Source of the DNA: a virus
Lineage: Duplodnaviria > Heunggongvirae > Uroviricota > Caudoviricetes
Strand: one strand, 5' to 3'
IMG/VR virus record: IMGVR_UViG_2541047739_000007
DNA: 32,653 bases
Shown: positions 1-14,301 of the stretch, piece after piece
Numbering within the stretch: the first letter of the stretch is position 1
Layout: each line of letters begins with the position of its first letter
Program-made: the position numbers and the translations under genes
The notes under the pieces: model-generated
What the model was told of the DNA's origin: nothing
Seen by the model: the letters and a program-made list of their open reading frames with translations, nothing else
Databases searched by the model: none

Positions 1-1164
1 TTACGCCTTCTTTATATCCTCCATAATTCCACAGTGGGACATATTTGGGACATTATCACCAAAAATGTCGTCTATTTTCCTTGCATGCTCTGTCAAATGA
101 TTAGGCGCAAGGTGAGCATACCTACGAACCATTTCTATGGACTCCCATCCGCCCATTTCCTGAAGCACAGATAATGGGACGCCTGACTGGATCAGCCAGC
201 TTGCCCAGGTGTGTCTGAGGTCATGGAAACGGAAATCTTCAATTCCTGCACGACGACAAGCTGATAGCCATGATGTCTTGCTGTCGATGCGCATCTTCCT
301 GACCGCAGGCGTTGATGTTCCATCTGCTCGCTTAGTCGCCTTGGTATGTACAAACACCCATTTGTGATGCTTGCCTATTTGATCACGCAACACTTTACAG
401 GCGGTATCGTTCAGCGCCACACCAATGGCGCGGTTTGATTTGCTCTCTTCTGGATTCACCCAGGCAACTCGTCGCTGCATGTCGATTTGTTGCCATTCCA
501 GATTTATGATGTTCGACTTTCTCAGACCAGTTGCCAGCGCAAACTTGACGACAGATTTCAGTGGTTCGGGGCACTCATCAATAAGGCGTTTTGCTTCCTC
601 CTTTTCCAGCCATCTGACTCGCTTGTTTCTGACCGCTGGTATCTTGATGACAGGCGCTTTTTCCAGCCACTTCCAGTCGCGTTCTGCAGCACGGAGAATG
701 GCCTTTATCATGGCAAGATGCTTTGCCTTTGTCTGAGTTGATACTGGCTTTGGTTCATAAACAGGCGGTTCTTTACCTTTCCTGATGGCGGCCTGAACTT
801 TCTGTTTCCATATTTCTTTCGTCTTTCTGTTATGCATTCTGCTTACAGCAGAGTAAATCTTTGCCTCCGAGATATCTTTAAGCCTTATACCCTCAAAATG
901 TTCAAGCCAGAACTCAATCCGGCTTTTATCTGAATCGAGAGATTTTTTATCAGCTTTTTCCTCAAGCCATCTTAGGCAGGCCTCTTCAAAAGTGACATCA
1001 GGTAAATCCCCTAGCTTTTCTACTCGCCAGAGTTCTGCTTTTCGCTTGTCGTGCAACTCCTGAGCTTGCCGCTTGTCCTTTGTGCCAAGAGATTCCTTAA
1101 TTCGTTTCCCGCCCGGGAGCGAATACGAGGCATACCATATTTCATTTCTGCGGAAGAGTGACAT
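1..1164 (-). CDS. int: Tyrosine site-specific integrase, P22/lambdoid type
   Basis: 387-aa ORF; N-terminus [34 protein letters not shown] resembles P22-family integrases; C-terminal HDLRHT...RYAHL tyrosine-recombinase signature; window begins at its stop codon, so att lies left of the window. Confidence 0.9.
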
Positions 1165-2585: not shown

Positions 2586-2903
2586 TTTGTTCTCCACGTA
2601 TATGCACTGCACCGCGCTGAATTCTGGTAAAAGGAAGCCCTCACCATCCGGTGATTATTGAGTTAATTACGTTTCCATAAATGCCCCCGCAGGGGCATTT
2701 GCAGTAATGAAATCAGGCGGTGAAAGTACCAATAAAGGTTTCTACTTTGCTGTCTTTGAATTTCTCAACAAGCAGATCACGAAATTCGTTAGCCATTTCT
2801 TCCTGCACCGCTTCCAGCTGAATAATGCGCAGAACCAGTACAGGACGATCGCCAGTGATAATGCTGAGGCGTAATTTAAACGGACGTTCTTTCAGACCTT
2901 CAA

Positions 2904-2912
2904 ACGGAACGC
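2904..2912. repeat. IS1 target-site duplication, left copy (ACGGAACGC)
   Basis: Identical 9-mer directly abuts both IS1 termini. Confidence 0.9.
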
Positions 2913-2967
2913 GGTGATGCTGCCAACTTACTGATTTAGTGTATGATGGTGTTTTTGAGGTGCTCCA

Positions 2968-3243
2968 GTGGCTTCTGTTTCTATCAGCTGTCCCTCCTGT
3001 TCAGCTACTGACGGGGTGGTGCGTAACGGCAAAAGCACCGCCGGACATCAGCGCTATCTCTGCTCTCACTGCCGTAAAACATGGCAACTGCAGTTCACTT
3101 ACACCGCTTCTCAACCCGGTACGCACCAGAAAATCATTGATATGGCCATGAATGGCGTTGGATGCCGGGCAACAGCCCGCATTATGGGCGTTGGCCTCAA
3201 CACGATTTTACGTCACTTAAAAAACTCAGGCCGCAGTCGGTAA
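2968..3243 (+). CDS. insA: IS1 InsA (transposition inhibitor / N-terminal part of transposase)
   Basis: 91-aa [46 protein letters not shown]... recognised as IS1 InsA. Confidence 0.95.
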
Positions 3244-3665
3244 CCTCGCGCATACAGCCGGGCAGTGACGTCATCGTCTGCGCGGAAATGGACGAACAGT
3301 GGGGCTATGTCGGGGCTAAATCGCGCCAGCGCTGGCTGTTTTACGCGTATGACAGGCTCCGGAAGACGGTTGTTGCGCACGTATTCGGTGAACGCACTAT
3401 GGCGACGCTGGGGCGTCTTATGAGCCTGCTGTCACCCTTTGACGTGGTGATATGGATGACGGATGGCTGGCCGCTGTATGAATCCCGCCTGAAGGGAAAG
3501 CTGCACGTAATCAGCAAGCGATATACGCAGCGAATTGAGCGGCATAACCTGAATCTGAGGCAGCACCTGGCACGGCTGGGACGGAAGTCGCTGTCGTTCT
3601 CAAAATCGGTGGAGCTGCATGACAAAGTCATCGGGCATTATCTGAACATAAAACACTATCAATAA
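3162..3665 (+). CDS. insB: IS1 InsB reading frame (expressed as InsAB' transposase via -1 frameshift at A6C, 3219-3225)
   Basis: 167-aa frame ...[28 protein letters not shown]... recognised as IS1 InsB; TTAAAAAAC slippery run present. Confidence 0.95.
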
Positions 3666-5942: not shown

Positions 5943-6617
5943 TTAGGCTTTGATTTTGTATCTTCTTGGTTTTCCTGAGAAAATCACAGTTCCAATTATA
6001 GAGCAATTACCGTTGATCTTAATGTAAGGCTCAGGCCAGTTTGGGTTTAACGCTTTGAGATAACGCTGTGTCCCATCTTCTATCAACCTTTTGAAGGTGG
6101 TTTCACCTGTATCGTGCATCAATGCAATAACGTCGTCACCGTGGCAGGCAGGTACTTCAGGATCGACAAAAATCATGTCTCCCGGGCGGTACTCATCAAT
6201 CATTGAATCACCTATCACCCGCAAGATATAAGTCATTTCCCCACAGGGTACAGGGCAGGGATACGTTTCTGCTGTGCTCAAATCAACCTCAGAATATCCA
6301 ACTTCTTTCCATGCTCCGGCCTGTACCCATGATATGACAGGGACTAATGTGATTTGTTTATTAGTGATTGAAACATCAGGTTTTTTTGTGATGTTCGTTG
6401 TCTGGTGTTCTTGATCGAGCCATCCGACAGGCAGGTCGAAACATTTTTCGATGTGTCGTGCCATGCTGTCACCGATATTTTTAGTAGCACCATCTCCCAT
6501 AAACCTGCTGGTCTGGGTTGGCTCGCGATCAATCATAGTGGCAAAGGAAGAATTCCCGCCAACACCATCTCTCAGTTTTCTGGCGTTAGACCGCCGGATG
6601 TCATGGATTGTTTTCAT
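5943..6617 (-). CDS. cI: CI-like prophage repressor with C-terminal S24 (LexA-like) self-cleaving peptidase domain
   Basis: 224 aa; C-terminal GDSM serine motif and downstream TFKRL lysine (Ser-Lys dyad); divergent from a cro-like gene. Confidence 0.85.
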   Translation of the reverse strand: MKTIHDIRRSNARKLRDGVGGNSSFATMIDREPTQTSRFMGDGATKNIGDSMARHIEKCFDLPVGWLDQEHQTTNITKKPDVSITNKQITLVPVISWVQAGAWKEVGYSEVDLSTAETYPCPVPCGEMTYILRVIGDSMIDEYRPGDMIFVDPEVPACHGDDVIALMHDTGETTFKRLIEDGTQRYLKALNPNWPEPYIKINGNCSIIGTVIFSGKPRRYKIKA

Positions 6618-8797: not shown

Positions 8798-9286
8798 ATG
8801 AGTCTTTTGAATGAAGTTCAGAAATTCATTGAAGCCCATCCGGGGTGTACTTCCGGAGACATTGCGGATGCTTTTGCAGGTTACTCACGGCAGCGCGTTC
8901 TGCAGTCAGCAAGCAAGTTACGTCAGAGTGGGCGTGTGGCTCACCGTTGTGAAGGGGATACACGCAGACATTTCCCGCGCCTGACTGAGAGAGCGCAGGA
9001 GCCGGAACCACAACCAGTTCGTGAAACCAGACCTGCGCGCAATTTCTATGTCGGCACTAACGATCCACGGGTAATTTTGTGCCTGACCCGCCAGGCTGAA
9101 GAACTGGAGTCCAGGGGCTTATACCGTCGTGCTGCAACCGTGTGGATGGCGGCATTCCGTGAAAGCCACTCCCAACCAGAACGAAACAATTTTCTGGCGC
9201 GTCGTGAGCGGTGTTTACGGAAAAGCAGCAAGCGCGCTGCATCGGGTGAAGAGTGGTATCTGTCAGGGAATTACGTGGGGGCTTAA
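8798..9286 (+). CDS. Hypothetical protein in the replication module (possible helicase-loader or regulatory role)
   Basis: 162-aa ORF immediately after the initiator; stop overlaps the next start (TAATG). Confidence 0.45.
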   Translation: MSLLNEVQKFIEAHPGCTSGDIADAFAGYSRQRVLQSASKLRQSGRVAHRCEGDTRRHFPRLTERAQEPEPQPVRETRPARNFYVGTNDPRVILCLTRQAEELESRGLYRRAATVWMAAFRESHSQPERNNFLARRERCLRKSSKRAASGEEWYLSGNYVGA

Positions 9287-9939
9287 TGAGTAATAAATAT
9301 TGCCAGGCGCTGGTGGAACTGCGGAACAAACCAGCCCATGAACTGAAGGAAGTGGGCGATCAGTGGCGCACGCCGGACAACATTTTCTGGGGAATTAACA
9401 CCCTGTTTGGCCCGTTTGTTCTGGATCTGTTCACTGACGGTGATAACACCAAATGTGCTGCGTATTACACGGCGGAAGACAACGCGCTGGCGCATGACTG
9501 GTCAGAACGTCTTGCGGAGCTTAAAGGTGCTGCCTTTGGTAATCCCCCATACAGCCGCGCCAGTCAGCATGAGGGGCAATACATCACAGGCATGCGTTAC
9601 ATCATGAAGCATGCCAGTGCCATGCGTGATAAAGGCGGGCGCTATGTTTTCCTGATCAAAGCTGCCACCAGCGAAGTGTGGTGGCCGGAAGATGCAGATC
9701 ATATTGCTTTTATTCGCGGGCGTATTGGTTTTGAACTGCCTGCCTGGTTTATCCCGAAAGATGAGAAGCAGGTGCCGACAGGCGCTTTCTTCGCTGGTGC
9801 TATTGCTGTTTTCGACAAGACCTGGAAGGGACCGGCAATCAGCTACATCGGGCGCGATGAACTTGAGGCATGTGGTGAGGCGTTTCTGGCGCAGGTTCGC
9901 CAGCAGGCGGAAAAACTGGTCAGGGAGATGGCGGCATGA
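9286..9939 (+). CDS. Phage N6-adenine DNA methyltransferase (Dam-like)
   Basis: Start MSNKYCQAL coupled to the upstream stop; catalytic GNPPYS (NPPY) motif. Confidence 0.8.
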   Translation: MSNKYCQALVELRNKPAHELKEVGDQWRTPDNIFWGINTLFGPFVLDLFTDGDNTKCAAYYTAEDNALAHDWSERLAELKGAAFGNPPYSRASQHEGQYITGMRYIMKHASAMRDKGGRYVFLIKAATSEVWWPEDADHIAFIRGRIGFELPAWFIPKDEKQVPTGAFFAGAIAVFDKTWKGPAISYIGRDELEACGEAFLAQVRQQAEKLVREMAA

Positions 9940-10262
9940 CGACGTTAACTCAATGCCAGCAGCAGGTGCTGGATATGCTGATTTCTTATCAGAAAGAACG
10001 TGGCTTCCCGCCAACCAATCAGGAGGTGGCAACCATGCTGGGATACCGTTCAGTGAATGCAGCGGTGGAGCATCTTCGCGCACTGGAGAAAAAAGGCGTC
10101 ATCACGATAAAGCGTGGTGTGGCCCGGGGGATCACGCTTCATACCGTGGTGAAGGACGACGACAGCGAGGCGGTCGGGATTATCCGCTCACTGCTTGCCG
10201 GTGAGGAAAACGCCAGGCTGCGTGCAGCCCACTGGTTACATGAGAGGGGCCTGAAAGTATGA
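9936..10262 (+). CDS. LexA DNA-binding-domain-only protein (no S24 peptidase domain)
   Basis: 108 aa; MTTLTQCQQQVLDML...GFPPTNQEVATMLGYRSVNAAVEHLRALEKKGVITIKRGVARGITL aligns along its length with the LexA N-terminal winged-helix domain; the ORF ends before any peptidase domain. Confidence 0.7.
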   Translation: MTTLTQCQQQVLDMLISYQKERGFPPTNQEVATMLGYRSVNAAVEHLRALEKKGVITIKRGVARGITLHTVVKDDDSEAVGIIRSLLAGEENARLRAAHWLHERGLKV

Positions 10263-10654
10263 AGTTGATCCTACCTTTTCCGCCCAGCGTGAACACGTAC
10301 TGGCGACACCCCAACAAAGGGGCGTTTGCTGGTAAGAGCCTGATAAGCGCGGCGGGGCGAAAATTCCAGAGCGCGGCGTGTGCAGCAATAGTTGAGCAGT
10401 TACGTCGTCTGCCGAAACCAACGTCGGCACCTGCTTCAGTGGAGATCGTGTTGTTTCCTCCGGATAACCGGATCCGCGATCTGGACAACTATAACAAGGC
10501 GCTGTTTGACGCCCTGACCCACGCGGGTGTGTGGGAAGACGACAGTCAGGTGAAAAGAATGCTGGTGGAGTGGGGACCGGTTATCCCGGAGGGGAAGGTC
10601 GAGATCACTATCAGTAAGTACGAAAAAGCGAGTTGCAAATTAGCAACTCGGTAA
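10259..10654 (+). CDS. rusA: Holliday-junction resolvase RusA
   Basis: 131 aa; PPSVNTYWRH...DLDNYNKALFDALT motifs characteristic of RusA. Confidence 0.85.
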   Translation: MKLILPFPPSVNTYWRHPNKGAFAGKSLISAAGRKFQSAACAAIVEQLRRLPKPTSAPASVEIVLFPPDNRIRDLDNYNKALFDALTHAGVWEDDSQVKRMLVEWGPVIPEGKVEITISKYEKASCKLATR

Positions 10655-10699
10655 CGGAATTGAGCAACACCCTAAATTTGGGTATTACCTCGTTAAAGA

Positions 10700-10719
10700 T
10701 ACTGTATTTATGAACAGTG
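10700..10719. promoter_or_regulatory. Candidate LexA (SOS) box TACTGTATTTATGAACAGTG
   Basis: CTG-N10-CAG with AT-rich centre; close to consensus TACTGTATATATATACAGTA; in the 160-bp gap upstream of the KilA-N gene. Confidence 0.65.
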
Positions 10720-10816
10720 TATCCTTGATAACTATTAAAAATCGCAGTAAGTTCATCCTGCATCAACGAAAAGGGAGTGCAGTCCCGCTCGTGGATAAAA
10801 ATTTGTGGAGAAACCA

Positions 10817-11632
10817 ATGAATCAGTTGCTTGTAATTGATGGCGTTTCTGTGCGCCAGTACTTCGAATCTAACTACTGTCTTAACGACCTTCAGAAAGCA
10901 GCTCTTCTTGCCGCTGGTGAGAATCGCTCCTCCCGTTCGCTGGAAGTTCACGAGTTTATGCGTCGTCCTGAAACGAAGGCTCTTGTGGAATTATTGGAAG
11001 AAGAAACTACGGGAGATTCCCGTAGTATTCCTGTCATCACCATTCAGGGGCGCAATGGTGGGACGTATGTCTGTAAAGAGCTGGTCTATGCATATGCAAT
11101 GTGGATCAGCCCGGCATTCAGCTTAAAAGTGATACGTACTTTTGATGCGCTTCATAATTCATCACCAGAAGAAACCACATCCGACAAAATTAAATCCGGG
11201 GTCATTCTGCTTGAATCAGCAGCAAAGACTCTAAATCTGTCAAACTCCTCGAAACTTGGTGCATACCAGAAATTATCAAAGGTAGCTGGTCTTCCTGAAC
11301 TTATGCCGATCTATGCCATTGATGCACCTGCTGATGCGCCAGATGGTTCAAGCCGCCCTACGCTGTCGCTGAGTGCACTGCTGAAGCAGTATGGTATCCG
11401 CCTGACGGCTAATCAGGCATATCACCAGATGGCGAAGCTGGGGATCGTTGAACAACGCGAACGATACAGCCGTACCGCGATTAACAACATCAAAAAATTC
11501 TGGTCGCTGACCGCGAAAGGCTGCATGTTCGGCAAGAACATCACCAGTCCTGCAAATCCGCGCGAGACGCAGCCGCATTTCTTCGAATCCCGATTTCCTG
11601 AGCTGTTAAAGCTGCTCGATACCGTTCATTGA
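10817..11632 (+). CDS. KilA-N domain protein (candidate SOS-controlled antirepressor)
   Basis: Start MNQLLVIDGV with GGAGA SD; KilA-N/APSES-like core (GGTYVCKELVYAYAMWISPAFSLKVIRTFD); about 272 aa. Confidence 0.65.
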   Translation: MNQLLVIDGVSVRQYFESNYCLNDLQKAALLAAGENRSSRSLEVHEFMRRPETKALVELLEEETTGDSRSIPVITIQGRNGGTYVCKELVYAYAMWISPAFSLKVIRTFDALHNSSPEETTSDKIKSGVILLESAAKTLNLSNSSKLGAYQKLSKVAGLPELMPIYAIDAPADAPDGSSRPTLSLSALLKQYGIRLTANQAYHQMAKLGIVEQRERYSRTAINNIKKFWSLTAKGCMFGKNITSPANPRETQPHFFESRFPELLKLLDTVH

Positions 11633-11633
11633 G

Positions 11634-12629
11634 GTGACCGTGAGAGCACTACTGACCCCTGAAATTGCCCCGCGTATGGGGATCGTATTGTTCAGGCCAG
11701 GTTCAGAGCTGATGCCCCTGTTTATGCAGGGGCGTGTCCTGCTGGAGCCTGAGCCGGAGCGTTATTCATCTTTCGCCAGTGGTGCCGTTCCGGCGGCATC
11801 ACAACCGCTGGCGGATGATCCTGCCGTTCGGGCCGTGTTCCGCCATGAGGCAGTGATCCGTCGTGCTGGTGGCGTGGAATGTCTTGAAAGCTGGTTACTT
11901 CGTGAAAAAGGCTGCCAGTGGCCTCATTCCGGATGGCACAGCGAGAACATGACCACAATGCGACACGCTCCGGGTGCAATCCGTCTGTGCTGGCACTGCG
12001 ATAACCAGCTGCGCGATCAGTTCACGGAACGGCTGGAATCAATGGCAACGGATAACTGTGCCCGCTGGGTGTTGTCTGTTGTGCGTCGGGATCTCGGTTT
12101 TGATGACAGTCACGTTGTGACAATGCCGGAACTGTGCTGGTGGCTGATTCGTAATGACCTGGCGGATGCCTTACCGGAAAGTGCAGCCCGTAAGGCACTG
12201 AGATTACCGAAGCCTGTTGTGCCGTCTGTCACCCGGGAAAGTGACCTTGTGCCTTCGGTTCCTGCCACCAGCATCATCCAGGATAAAGCGAAAAAGGTGC
12301 TGGCGCTGAAAGTGGATCCGGAGTCGCCGGAGTCTTTTATGTTACGCCCAAAACGTCGCCGCTGGGTTAATGAAAAGTACACGCGCTGGGTTAAGACGCA
12401 GCCGTGCGCATGTTGTGGAAAGCCTGCTGATGATCCCCACCACCTGATAGGCCACGGTCAGGGGGGAATGGGTACAAAAGCGCATGACCTCTTCGTGTTG
12501 CCTTTGTGCAGAAAGCATCACGACGAGCTGCATGCGGATACCGTGGCATTTGAAGAGAAGTATGGCTCCCAGCTGGAGCTGATATTTCGTTTTATCGATC
12601 GCGCACTGGCGATTGGTGTGCTGGCCTGA
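11634..12629 (+). CDS. DUF968-like protein with C-terminal HNH-like Cys/His motif
   Basis: 331-aa ORF (GTG start); C-terminus [18 protein letters not shown]...[10 protein letters not shown]. Confidence 0.55.
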
Positions 12630-12646
12630 TTTTGTGGAGAAAGTTA

Positions 12647-13030
12647 ATGCGTGATATTCAGATGGTTCTTGAACGTTGGGGAGCGTGGGCGGCTAATAAT
12701 CATGAAGATGTGACCTGGTCGTCCATTGCCGCCGGTTTTAAGGGATTAATTCCTTCAAAAGTAAAATCTCGCCCGCAATGTTGTGACGATGACGCGATGA
12801 TCATTTGCGGGTGCATGGCCCGTCTGAAAAAGAACAACAGCGATTTACACGATTTATTAGTAGATTATTATGTATGTGGTATGACATTCATGTCACTGGC
12901 AAGTAAGCATTGCTGCTCGGATGGTTATATCGGGAAAAGGTTACAGAAGGCTGAGGGCATAATTGAAGGGATGTTAATGGCATTAGATATCCGGTTAGAT
13001 ATGGATATCGTTGCTAATAATTCTAATTGA
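12647..13030 (+). CDS. Late-gene antiterminator, Q-like
   Basis: Start [11 protein letters not shown] with GGAGA SD; Cys-rich ([12 protein letters not shown]); position between nin-type genes and the lysis cassette. Confidence 0.55.
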
Positions 13031-13218: not shown

Positions 13219-14301
13219 TTAGAACTGATAAACCAGACCTACAGCGACGATGTCGTCGGTATCAATACCAGCTGTTTTGGTAAACTTACTATCGTCAATT
13301 AAGTTGATTTTGTAATCAACAAAAGTGGACATGTTTTTATTAAAGTAGTAAGTAGCACCGACATCGACATACTTGACTAAGTCTCGGTCACCATGAACAC
13401 CAAGGTCTTTACCTTTTGACTGAAGGTAAGCAACAGATGGACGCAGACCGAAGTCAAACTGATATTGTGCTACTGCTTCAAAGTTTTGTGCTTTGTTTGC
13501 AATATGGTTATTACCAAAAACGGTCATATTCTGAGTTTCAGAATATGTGGTAGCCAGATAGATATTGTTCGCATCATATTTCAGGCCTGCAGCCCATACT
13601 TCCGCATTTTTGCCGGAGGCATTGAATTTGCTCTTACCATAGGCGACCTGACCGTCAGTGCGATCTGATTTAGCATAGGTTGCACCCACGCCGAATCCTT
13701 CATACTCATAAGTAGTGGAGAAACCGAAACCATCACCATTGGCTTCAGTTACGTCAGTGCGGTCATTTTTACCCTGATACTGAGCAGCAAAGTTCAGGCC
13801 ATCGACCAGACCAAAGAAGTCGTTGTTACGATAAGTTGCAACACCAGTAGTGCGACCAGTCATGAACACATCTGTTTGGGTCCAGGTATCACCACCGAAT
13901 TCTGGCAGGACGTCAGTCCACGCACCGATGTCGTATGCTACACCGTAGTTACGGCCGTAATCGATTGAGCCGTAATCACCAAATTTCAGGCCTGCAAATG
14001 CAAGACGGGTTTTGTCTTTGGAAGAACCTTGAGATTCAGCACGGTTGCCTTTGAATTCATATTCCCACTGACCGAAACCAGTCAGTTGATCGTTGATTTG
14101 GGTTTCACCTTTGAAGCCAAGACGGGCATAAGTAGTATCACCATCATCTGCATCATTAGAGGAGAAGTAGTGCTTGGCATTAACTTTCCCGTATAGATCC
14201 AGCTTGTTACTGTCTTTATTATAAATTTCAGCTGCCTGAGCAGACATCGCCATCAGTACTGATGCAGCTACAGCAGAAATTGCCACTGTTAATTTTTTCA
14301 T
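13219..14301 (-). CDS. nmpC: OmpC/OmpF-family outer-membrane porin (prophage-borne NmpC/Lc type)
   Basis: 360 aa; signal peptide [23 protein letters not shown]; porin C-terminus ...VGLVYQF; on the opposite strand between Q and the lysis genes. Confidence 0.9.

Follow-up and report, generated by a model that had tools for sequence, protein, structure and literature searches.

We analyzed a 32,653-nt stretch of viral DNA (IMG/VR virus record IMGVR_UViG_2541047739_000007; hereafter, the window), which is a lambdoid, SfV-like prophage, and we focus on one short gene in it, at 9936..10262 on the plus strand. The open reading frame (ORF) encodes a 108-amino-acid (aa) protein of the LexA family that has no S24 peptidase domain (PHROG 362, the same family as SfV orf42); we refer to it as the LexA-head gene. 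Cleavage of LexA is the master switch of the DNA-damage (SOS) response, prophage induction, colicin release, and induced mutagenesis.

Residues 1–65 of the product match the Pfam family LexA_DNA_bind (PF01726; E 2.9e-19, 69 bits against a cutoff of 23.7), with no other noteworthy Pfam match, and phrog_362, labeled “transcriptional repressor,” spans the whole protein (1–108 versus 1–106 of 106, E 2.4e-59). Peptidase_S24 was absent from the 108-aa protein in a Pfam scan that does detect this domain in the CI-type repressor of the prophage (5943..6617, minus strand; E 1.5e-26). The NCBIfam lexA equivalog TIGR00498 is covered only over model positions 1–91 of 203, at 71 bits and below its cutoff of 110.95, and the chain ends at residue 108, short of the Ser119-Lys156 dyad and of the C-terminal S24 peptidase-dimerization domain of a LexA repressor. 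What it does share is the outline of the PHROG 362, PF01726-only family of SfV orf42: ~106–112 aa, a DNA-binding domain followed by a conserved hairpin, and a nin-type slot. Without an S24 domain, RecA-stimulated self-cleavage is impossible. A first-pass annotation, made from the letters of the window, had read the gene in the same way, as a LexA DNA-binding domain whose ORF ends before any S24 domain.

Both ends of the gene are locked to its neighbors. Its ATG shares the tetranucleotide ATGA (9936–9939) with the stop codon of dam, and its stop codon shares another ATGA (10259–10262) with the start of rusA, which thus follows immediately, as the annotation had stated. These codon overlaps leave no place for a concealed downstream domain. 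The annotation had also raised the prospect of a sequencing correction that would fuse the ORF to a peptidase domain; we considered such a concealed domain or frameshift and ruled it out by the overlap of the stop with rusA and by the recurrence of the same 108-aa ORF, followed by rusA, in 2233 Escherichia coli genomes.

The head is a LexA-type winged helix-turn-helix (codons 1–69; 9936..10142, plus strand) on the evidence of AlphaFold2 (AF2) modeling (predicted local distance difference test, pLDDT, ~89), Foldseek, and phmmer. The AF2 model was built from an 18-sequence family alignment and reached an overall pLDDT of 84.6, whereas a single-sequence run was unusable (pLDDT 56). It places helices at residues 6–22, 28–35, and 40–52 and a beta-hairpin wing at 56–68, and Foldseek superimposes the head on the E. 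coli LexA-DNA complex 3jso with a root-mean-square deviation of 1.0 Å over 68 columns at 50% identity. The best sequence matches among solved structures are E. coli LexA entries, over residues 2–69 (phmmer, 1lea, E 7.5e-16). The alignments to the Protein Data Bank (PDB) sequences serve as an independent check on the LexA row of one of our family alignments. The annotation had aligned the protein with LexA along its whole length; this holds for residues 1–69 and fails for residues 74–103, which form a family-specific element that it overlooked.

This element is a two-helix hairpin (codons 74–103; 10155..10244, plus strand), with helices at 74–88 and 93–103, supported by AF2 and by conservation across the family. 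The last ~35 residues of the protein are not LexA-like and constitute a family-specific module in place of the S24 domain. The hairpin is predicted with a pLDDT of ~90 and is connected to the head by a flexible linker (residues 69–75), with residues 71–75 falling below 50; the predicted template modeling score of 0.57 fits two rigid parts joined by a flexible tether. Homologs down to 39–50% identity keep it; A97 and L101 do not vary, and hydrophobic residues form a stripe along both helices. Since a hairpin of 30 residues is unlikely to be stable on its own, it probably serves either as a dimerization module, forming a four-helix bundle, or as a module that binds a partner. A homolog in Edwardsiella phage EPP-1 (L083 2995–3210) is only 71 aa long and consists of the LexA head without the hairpin. 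In that phage, an SOS box, AACTGTATGTAAATCCAGTA (L083 2231–2250), lies ~80 nt upstream of the ORF that directly precedes the LexA-head gene, so that LexA may control this version of the gene as well.

The HMMER alignment to LexA continues weakly through the linker and sets the phage “LLAGE” opposite “VAAGE” of LexA, i.e., the A84-G85 cleavage site; this match may be a vestige of LexA ancestry. We considered A88-G89 as a retained cleavage site, which would suit a role in trans-cleavage or as a decoy, and rejected it, as the dipeptide becomes AN or VG in relatives and the segment is predicted to be helical, whereas in LexA the site enters the active center as an extended strand. The broader idea to which this alignment lends some support, that the protein poisons host LexA through heterodimers or acts as a substrate that occupies S24 proteases, strikes us as far-fetched on these grounds and on one more: LexA dimerizes through its C-terminal domain, which the phage protein lacks. 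The interference with host LexA envisaged by the annotation is thus unlikely in the form of heterodimers.

The family is widespread. The identical protein (100%) is encoded by Shigella phage SfIV and by Escherichia phages PhiR49_1 and PhiR63_1, and proteins of 96–99% identity occur in SfV (orf42), SfII, mEp460, cdtI, 1720a-02, and Stx2a and Stx2c phages. The gene followed by rusA is present in 2233 of 5426 complete E. coli genomes (~41%), at 2855 places and with at least 95% nucleotide identity. Close relatives are found in Citrobacter, Salmonella, and Hafnia, and relatives of 46–50% identity in mEp390 and in Kosakonia prophages. Down to this level the gene order is preserved (methylase or replication gene, LexA-head gene, rusA, an optional KilA-N or Rha/Ant-like gene, DUF968 gene, antiterminator Q), and the position in the nin slot was the same wherever we checked it (window, SfV, mEp390, Kosakonia, and mEp460). 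An exhaustive HMMER search of 1.8 billion representative sequences returned 4478 proteins at E ≤ 1e-3, many of them short LexA heads without S24, which makes such heads a broad phenomenon. The matches also include S24-less proteins of 141–352 aa with two tandem LexA_DNA_bind domains in a single chain (P0132, P0133, P0149, P0152, P0155, P0157, and P0153), one of them fused to a PTPS domain. Pseudo-dimers of this single-chain type are another route to an uncleavable bivalent LexA head.

The gene itself is not new. It has been in the databases since SfV was sequenced and is named by both PGAP and PHROGs, a long-standing record that the annotation also missed. It has been labeled anything from “unknown” to “LexA DNA binding domain protein”; a further label, “SOS-response repressor and protease LexA,” is wrong. 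A catalogue of Stx phages lists it as pham 237, pfam01726 (PMC8136144). In the literature we found catalogue entries and no functional study of the enterobacterial LexA-head family, nor any description of the C-terminal hairpin, of the systematic loss of Glu44 described below, or of the ~41% prevalence in E. coli.

Ratios of nonsynonymous to synonymous substitution rates (dN/dS), computed on unsaturated pairs, were 0.17 between the window and a Shigella copy (head 0, tail 0.40) and 0.10–0.15 among Kosakonia copies (head 0.08–0.10), with the hairpin tail ranging over 0.09–0.40. The pattern is one of purifying selection, strongest on the DNA-binding domain, and overall values of 0.10–0.17 mark the LexA-head gene as a working gene. 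They bear directly on the proposal that it is a functionless leftover, either the decaying remnant of a phage LexA- or CI-like repressor or an artifact of annotation or sequencing. The weak alignment to “AGE” at A84-G85 does suggest descent from a gene truncated just past the cleavage site, and frameshifted copies exist, in Shigella for example. However, an ORF of 106–112 aa has been maintained intact in six genera (Escherichia, Shigella, Citrobacter, Salmonella, Hafnia, and Kosakonia) and recurs in 2233 E. coli genomes, with the low dN/dS and a conserved tail that is predicted to fold; this conservation effectively refutes the proposal, to which we give almost no credence. The frameshifted copy that we saw in Shigella flexneri CP182557.1 (L086 211–533) is a second one beside an intact copy (L085) and probably belongs to a decaying prophage.

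Downstream of rusA, the window contains a LexA (SOS) box, TACTGTATTTATGAACAGTG, at 10700..10719. It has four mismatches to the 20-mer E. coli consensus, with the CTGT-N8-ACAG core intact. The box is 438 nt past the stop of the LexA-head gene, 46 nt past that of rusA, and 97 nt before the likely ATG (10817) of a gene with a KilA-N domain (10817..11632, plus strand; Pfam KilA-N E 1.3e-15; phrog_129, “transcriptional regulator,” E 4.3e-109), whose start is preceded at 6 nt by GGAG. The annotation had thus located it correctly, at about 450 bp downstream and ahead of the KilA-N gene. No other site in the window comes within four mismatches of the LexA consensus, and composition-preserving shuffles produced any such site in only 2 of 300 cases; by these sequence measures the box is real and non-random. 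A search of the whole window for other LexA-like palindromes with spacers of 0–20 gave no credible candidate. The best promoter candidate that we could find manually near the box, TTGAGC-17-TATTAC, ends 11 nt before it, and a consensus scan called none. The KilA-N gene has a high-quality box in its regulatory region, as a LexA-controlled antirepressor module does.

The annotation had named this box as one that matches the protein, and the distribution of the box weakens this part of its reading. A 162-bp intergenic module (10655–10816), specific to one KilA-N allele (MNQLLVIDGVSVRQ...), contains the box; in most relatives another KilA-N allele (MNNLMVIDGIEVRR...) stands directly behind rusA. 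Among IMG/VR loci with a 99–100% identical LexA-head gene, the module and its box were present in 15 of 80, and in ~61 of the 80 rusA is followed within ~20 nt by a different KilA-N allele, with neither intergenic region nor box. In complete E. coli genomes the box module occurs in 185 of 5426 (203 places) and is contiguous with the LexA-head gene in 176 of the 185, which is explained by fixed synteny. Seen from the side of the LexA-head gene, these 176–185 genomes are a small part of ~2230–2300 carriers, so that a nearby box accompanies only ~7–8% of the E. coli gene copies, and distant homologs occupy the same nin slot without a box. A functional coupling of the gene to the box is therefore not supported as a trait of the family. 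Most simply, the box is an operator at which host LexA controls this KilA-N allele. The exchange of KilA-N alleles is a clean case of mosaic module exchange in which LexA control is added.

At least one strong SOS box was found in all four of the complete or near-complete carrier phages scanned. The window prophage has it at KilA-N, SfV at a late methylase gene, mEp390 at dinI, and mEp460 at three places, namely at dinI, at a late methylase gene, and inside cI. The methylase box, TACTGTAAAAATAAACAGTG, is found in SfV (L084 34170–34189), in mEp460 (L166 41021–41040), and in the IMG/VR loci L027, L060, and L076 at ~+3900 from the gene. There it occupies the opening codons of a DNA methylase gene of the late region (orf48 in SfV), beyond Q, which is an unusual place to find a LexA operator. 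A near-consensus box, TACTGTTTTTA[CT]ATACAGTA (two to four mismatches), is located inside the coding sequence of a CI-type S24 repressor gene of different immunity, in the linker between the helix-turn-helix and the peptidase (L085 3103–3122, in the minus-strand ORF 2639..3331; L006 445–464; mEp460, L166 31970; Citrobacter, L087 1865). This intragenic box turns up in many other prophages with a LexA-head gene but not in the cI of the window, and LexA bound to it may serve as a roadblock or regulator there. In mEp460 (L166 23255 and 23283) and mEp390 (L167 20706), dinI-like morons are preceded by classic SOS boxes. With a UmuD-like gene also present in mEp390, these two phages are tied into the SOS network at several points.

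The LexA-head gene stands in a chain of early genes. The integrase gene lies at 1..1164 on the minus strand, and the CI-type repressor gene, whose S24 domain gives the prophage a RecA-sensitive switch of its own, is followed on the plus strand by a CII-like gene (from 6940), a replication gene (from 7854), a PerC-like gene (from 8798), and a Dam-type N6-adenine methyltransferase gene (9286..9939; Pfam Dam E 9.6e-46), for which ATG 9286 is the likely start by analogy with the dam of SfV. Beyond the LexA-head gene come the rusA Holliday-junction resolvase gene (10259..10654; Pfam RusA E 6.4e-15), the KilA-N gene, a DUF968/HNH-like gene (11634..12629; Pfam DUF968 E 1.9e-81), and the gene for antiterminator Q (12632..13030; Phage_antitermQ E 7.7e-54), which closes the nin-type early operon; all four are on the plus strand. 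Successive stops and starts overlap or abut from the replication gene through the PerC-like, dam, and LexA-head genes to rusA. Given this abutting chain, the simplest view is that the LexA-head gene is part of the early (pR, nin-type) operon, with expression expected upon infection or following the loss of CI. The dam promoter annotated in SfV is weak and is not conserved in the window. At the extreme end of rusA (10628–10650) there is an inverted repeat, GCGAGTTGC-AAATTA-GCAACTCG; a run of T follows it on the minus strand only, so it resembles a leftward rather than a rightward terminator. Just downstream of Q, a full-length porin gene of the OmpC/NmpC type (13219–14301, minus strand; Porin_1 E 1.8e-151) looks like a lysogenic-conversion moron.

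This arrangement also invites a different role for the hairpin, as a tether or adaptor that binds a partner such as the co-translated RusA, the DUF968/HNH nuclease, RecA, or a host factor, while the head places the partner on DNA. Over the full range of 46–100% identity the gene is always adjacent or translationally coupled to rusA, with DUF968 close downstream, and a hairpin that is hydrophobic on two faces needs something to pack against. On the other hand, nin regions are highly mosaic, and neighboring genes there need not encode a complex; the 71-aa EPP-1 version without a hairpin indicates that the head alone is the conserved core; and no example is known for RusA or DUF968. We regard such a role as improbable.

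The residues that face DNA bring the head close to LexA. The residues of LexA reported to contact DNA (PMC3091678) are S39, N41, A42, E44, and E45, and the phage protein has S39, N41, A42, V44, and E45. Four of the five contacts are thus retained, in a recognition helix that reads SVNAAVEHL versus SPNAAEEHL in LexA, and in the family as a whole S39 is invariant and N41 nearly so. As for what a bare head can do, another report (PMC10584840) indicates that the isolated N-terminal domain of LexA keeps some SOS-box binding and repression, and that ClpXP has to remove this fragment for full SOS induction, as it still represses.

Our analysis establishes the domain content, fold, conservation, operon position, and spread of the gene and the reality of the box, while dimerization, DNA specificity, repression, and time of expression are inferred for its product. 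The reading that we favor, tentatively and as something less than probable, is that the product is an uncleavable, RecA-insensitive, hairpin-dimerized repressor of SOS boxes, made from the early lytic operon and able to re-repress after host LexA has been destroyed. The hairpin would pair two LexA-head chains, for which a conserved and confidently predicted helical pair on a flexible linker offers a plausible route to bivalency, and the paired heads would bind LexA-type palindromes containing CTGT. Having neither an S24 domain nor a ClpX signal exposed by cleavage, the protein would be insensitive to RecA*. Its synthesis would have to await an infection or the release of the early operon from CI, after which it would re-repress SOS boxes; candidate targets are the KilA-N box in the window (as a feedback shut-off), SOS genes of the host, and, in relatives, the boxes at cI, dinI, and a methylase gene.

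Several observations weigh against this repressor reading. Host LexA alone accounts for all of the phage SOS boxes, and the box near the LexA-head gene is, as described above, a minority companion. Dimerization through the hairpin is putative. Consensus promoter scans of the plus strand of the region called no promoter, pR included. Having missed pR itself, they are no evidence for or against an internal promoter, and the timing of expression rests solely on the arrangement of the genes. The recognition helix carries its own warning: in 71 genuine gammaproteobacterial LexA proteins, a control set obtained from a profile search with a narrower family alignment, E44 is invariant (71 of 71) and E45 present in 70 of 71, and helix 3, whose motif reads CTGT, has the sequence S-x-NAAEEHL in 70, while position 44 in the phage family is occupied by V, A, T, F, L, or Y, with E in no member. 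Among 18 diverse family members, five have lost E45; one of these represents a Citrobacter clade (NTIAGHL), in which the SOS box of the host should have stayed as it is. With E44 lost and E45 variable, a specificity identical to that of LexA is not assured. Finally, the one characterized truncated LexA of a phage, gp6 of GIL01, recognizes a different site and activates transcription (PMC6182141).

Many of these observations fit a second reading, in which the protein is a phage-specific transcription factor of diverged specificity, with no direct effect on the SOS regulon. Here the LexA fold would be an ancient acquisition that now reads some phage or host operator other than the SOS box and activates or represses a phage function. 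GIL01 gp6 provides the model, as this truncated LexA homolog binds GaCACAnnTGTGaC and activates a late promoter (PMC6182141). Besides the systematic absence of Glu at position 44, A42 and A43 vary in some clades along with E45 (again, NTIAGHL in Citrobacter), and the gene is conserved with or without an SOS box nearby. Yet the E. coli clade has a recognition helix and a wing very near those of LexA, and the model fits DNA-bound LexA at 1.0 Å. Our search of the window showed no alternative conserved palindrome, the SOS box being the only CTGT/ACAG palindrome with an AT-rich spacer, and late-gene activation is already supplied by Q. We consider this second reading possible but on the unlikely side. 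If the protein does recognize another site, then phages would have turned a LexA head into a private regulator twice independently, once in GIL01 gp6 and once here.

The repressor reading can be carried further. In its strongest form, which we find doubtful, ~40% of E. coli genomes harbor a RecA-proof phage stand-in for LexA, dimerized by a mini-hairpin, that re-silences the whole SOS regulon upon the lytic switch, or in lysogens to a low degree. SOS-boxed genes of the phage itself, LexA-controlled antirepressors of rival prophages, colicins, and mutagenic polymerases would then be among its targets, and it would amount to a general viral SOS shut-off switch with a bearing on Stx-phage induction, inter-prophage competition, and antibiotic-induced mutagenesis. 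Even in the narrower form of the reading, an induced prophage with a stable uncleavable LexA head could close the SOS switch again, turn off the SOS-boxed accessory genes that it carries, stop competitors dependent on LexA-controlled antirepressors, and alter the response of a lysogen to SOS-inducing antibiotics. As the gene is carried by Stx2, cdt, and serotype-converting Shigella phages and by ~41% of E. coli genomes, even a modest effect would be widespread. As a sequence feature the gene is ordinary; its consequences are potentially large.

The natural reference point is E. coli LexA itself (PDB 1LEA, 1JHH, and 3JSO). The two proteins have in common the N-terminal winged helix, with ~50% identity over residues 2–69, and S39, N41, A42, and E45 of helix 3. 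Unlike LexA, the phage protein has no S24 domain and no conserved Ala-Gly site, has Val in place of E44, and carries a hairpin where LexA has its C-terminal domain; its gene sits in an early lytic operon and is not autoregulated by SOS boxes of its own. The head has the same domain content as the N-terminal LexA fragment (1–84) left by self-cleavage. That fragment is short-lived, since cleavage exposes a ClpX signal, whereas the phage protein is a primary product with the C-terminus ...RGLKV and an additional hairpin, and it may therefore be stable and bivalent.

A phage protein that consists of a LexA head only is not new as a kind, and the characterized precedent, which the annotation did not mention, is gp6 of the Bacillus thuringiensis tectivirus GIL01, a 66-aa protein that is 44% identical to Bacillus LexA (PMC6182141). 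Both gp6 and the LexA-head protein are LexA DNA-binding domains without a protease, made from an early operon. They differ in that gp6 has no hairpin and activates a late promoter from a non-LexA palindrome overlapping the -35 element (PMC6182141), whereas the window phage has Q. BLASTP gave no alignment between the two at E ≤ 100, and only the Pfam domain class is common to them; the two arose independently.

The box-bearing KilA-N module has counterparts in 186 Tum, N15 AntC, and the Gifsy antirepressors, which are prophage genes under direct control of host LexA (PMC8044961). In contrast to those systems, the CI of the window has an S24 domain of its own, so that induction can do without an antirepressor, and the SOS-boxed KilA-N allele is a minority variant. 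For one carrier of the LexA-head gene, phage 1720a-02, a preprint describes a “bully phage” effect and attributes it to Cro, not to the LexA-head protein. In its proposed outcome, a mobile element that holds down or reshapes the LexA regulon, our reading of the LexA-head protein as an SOS-box repressor resembles GIL01 gp7 (PMC6182141), the DinI-like morons, of which the relatives mEp460 and mEp390 carry dinI-like genes, and PsiB. Those factors act on LexA or RecA, whereas the LexA-head protein would replace LexA on the DNA.

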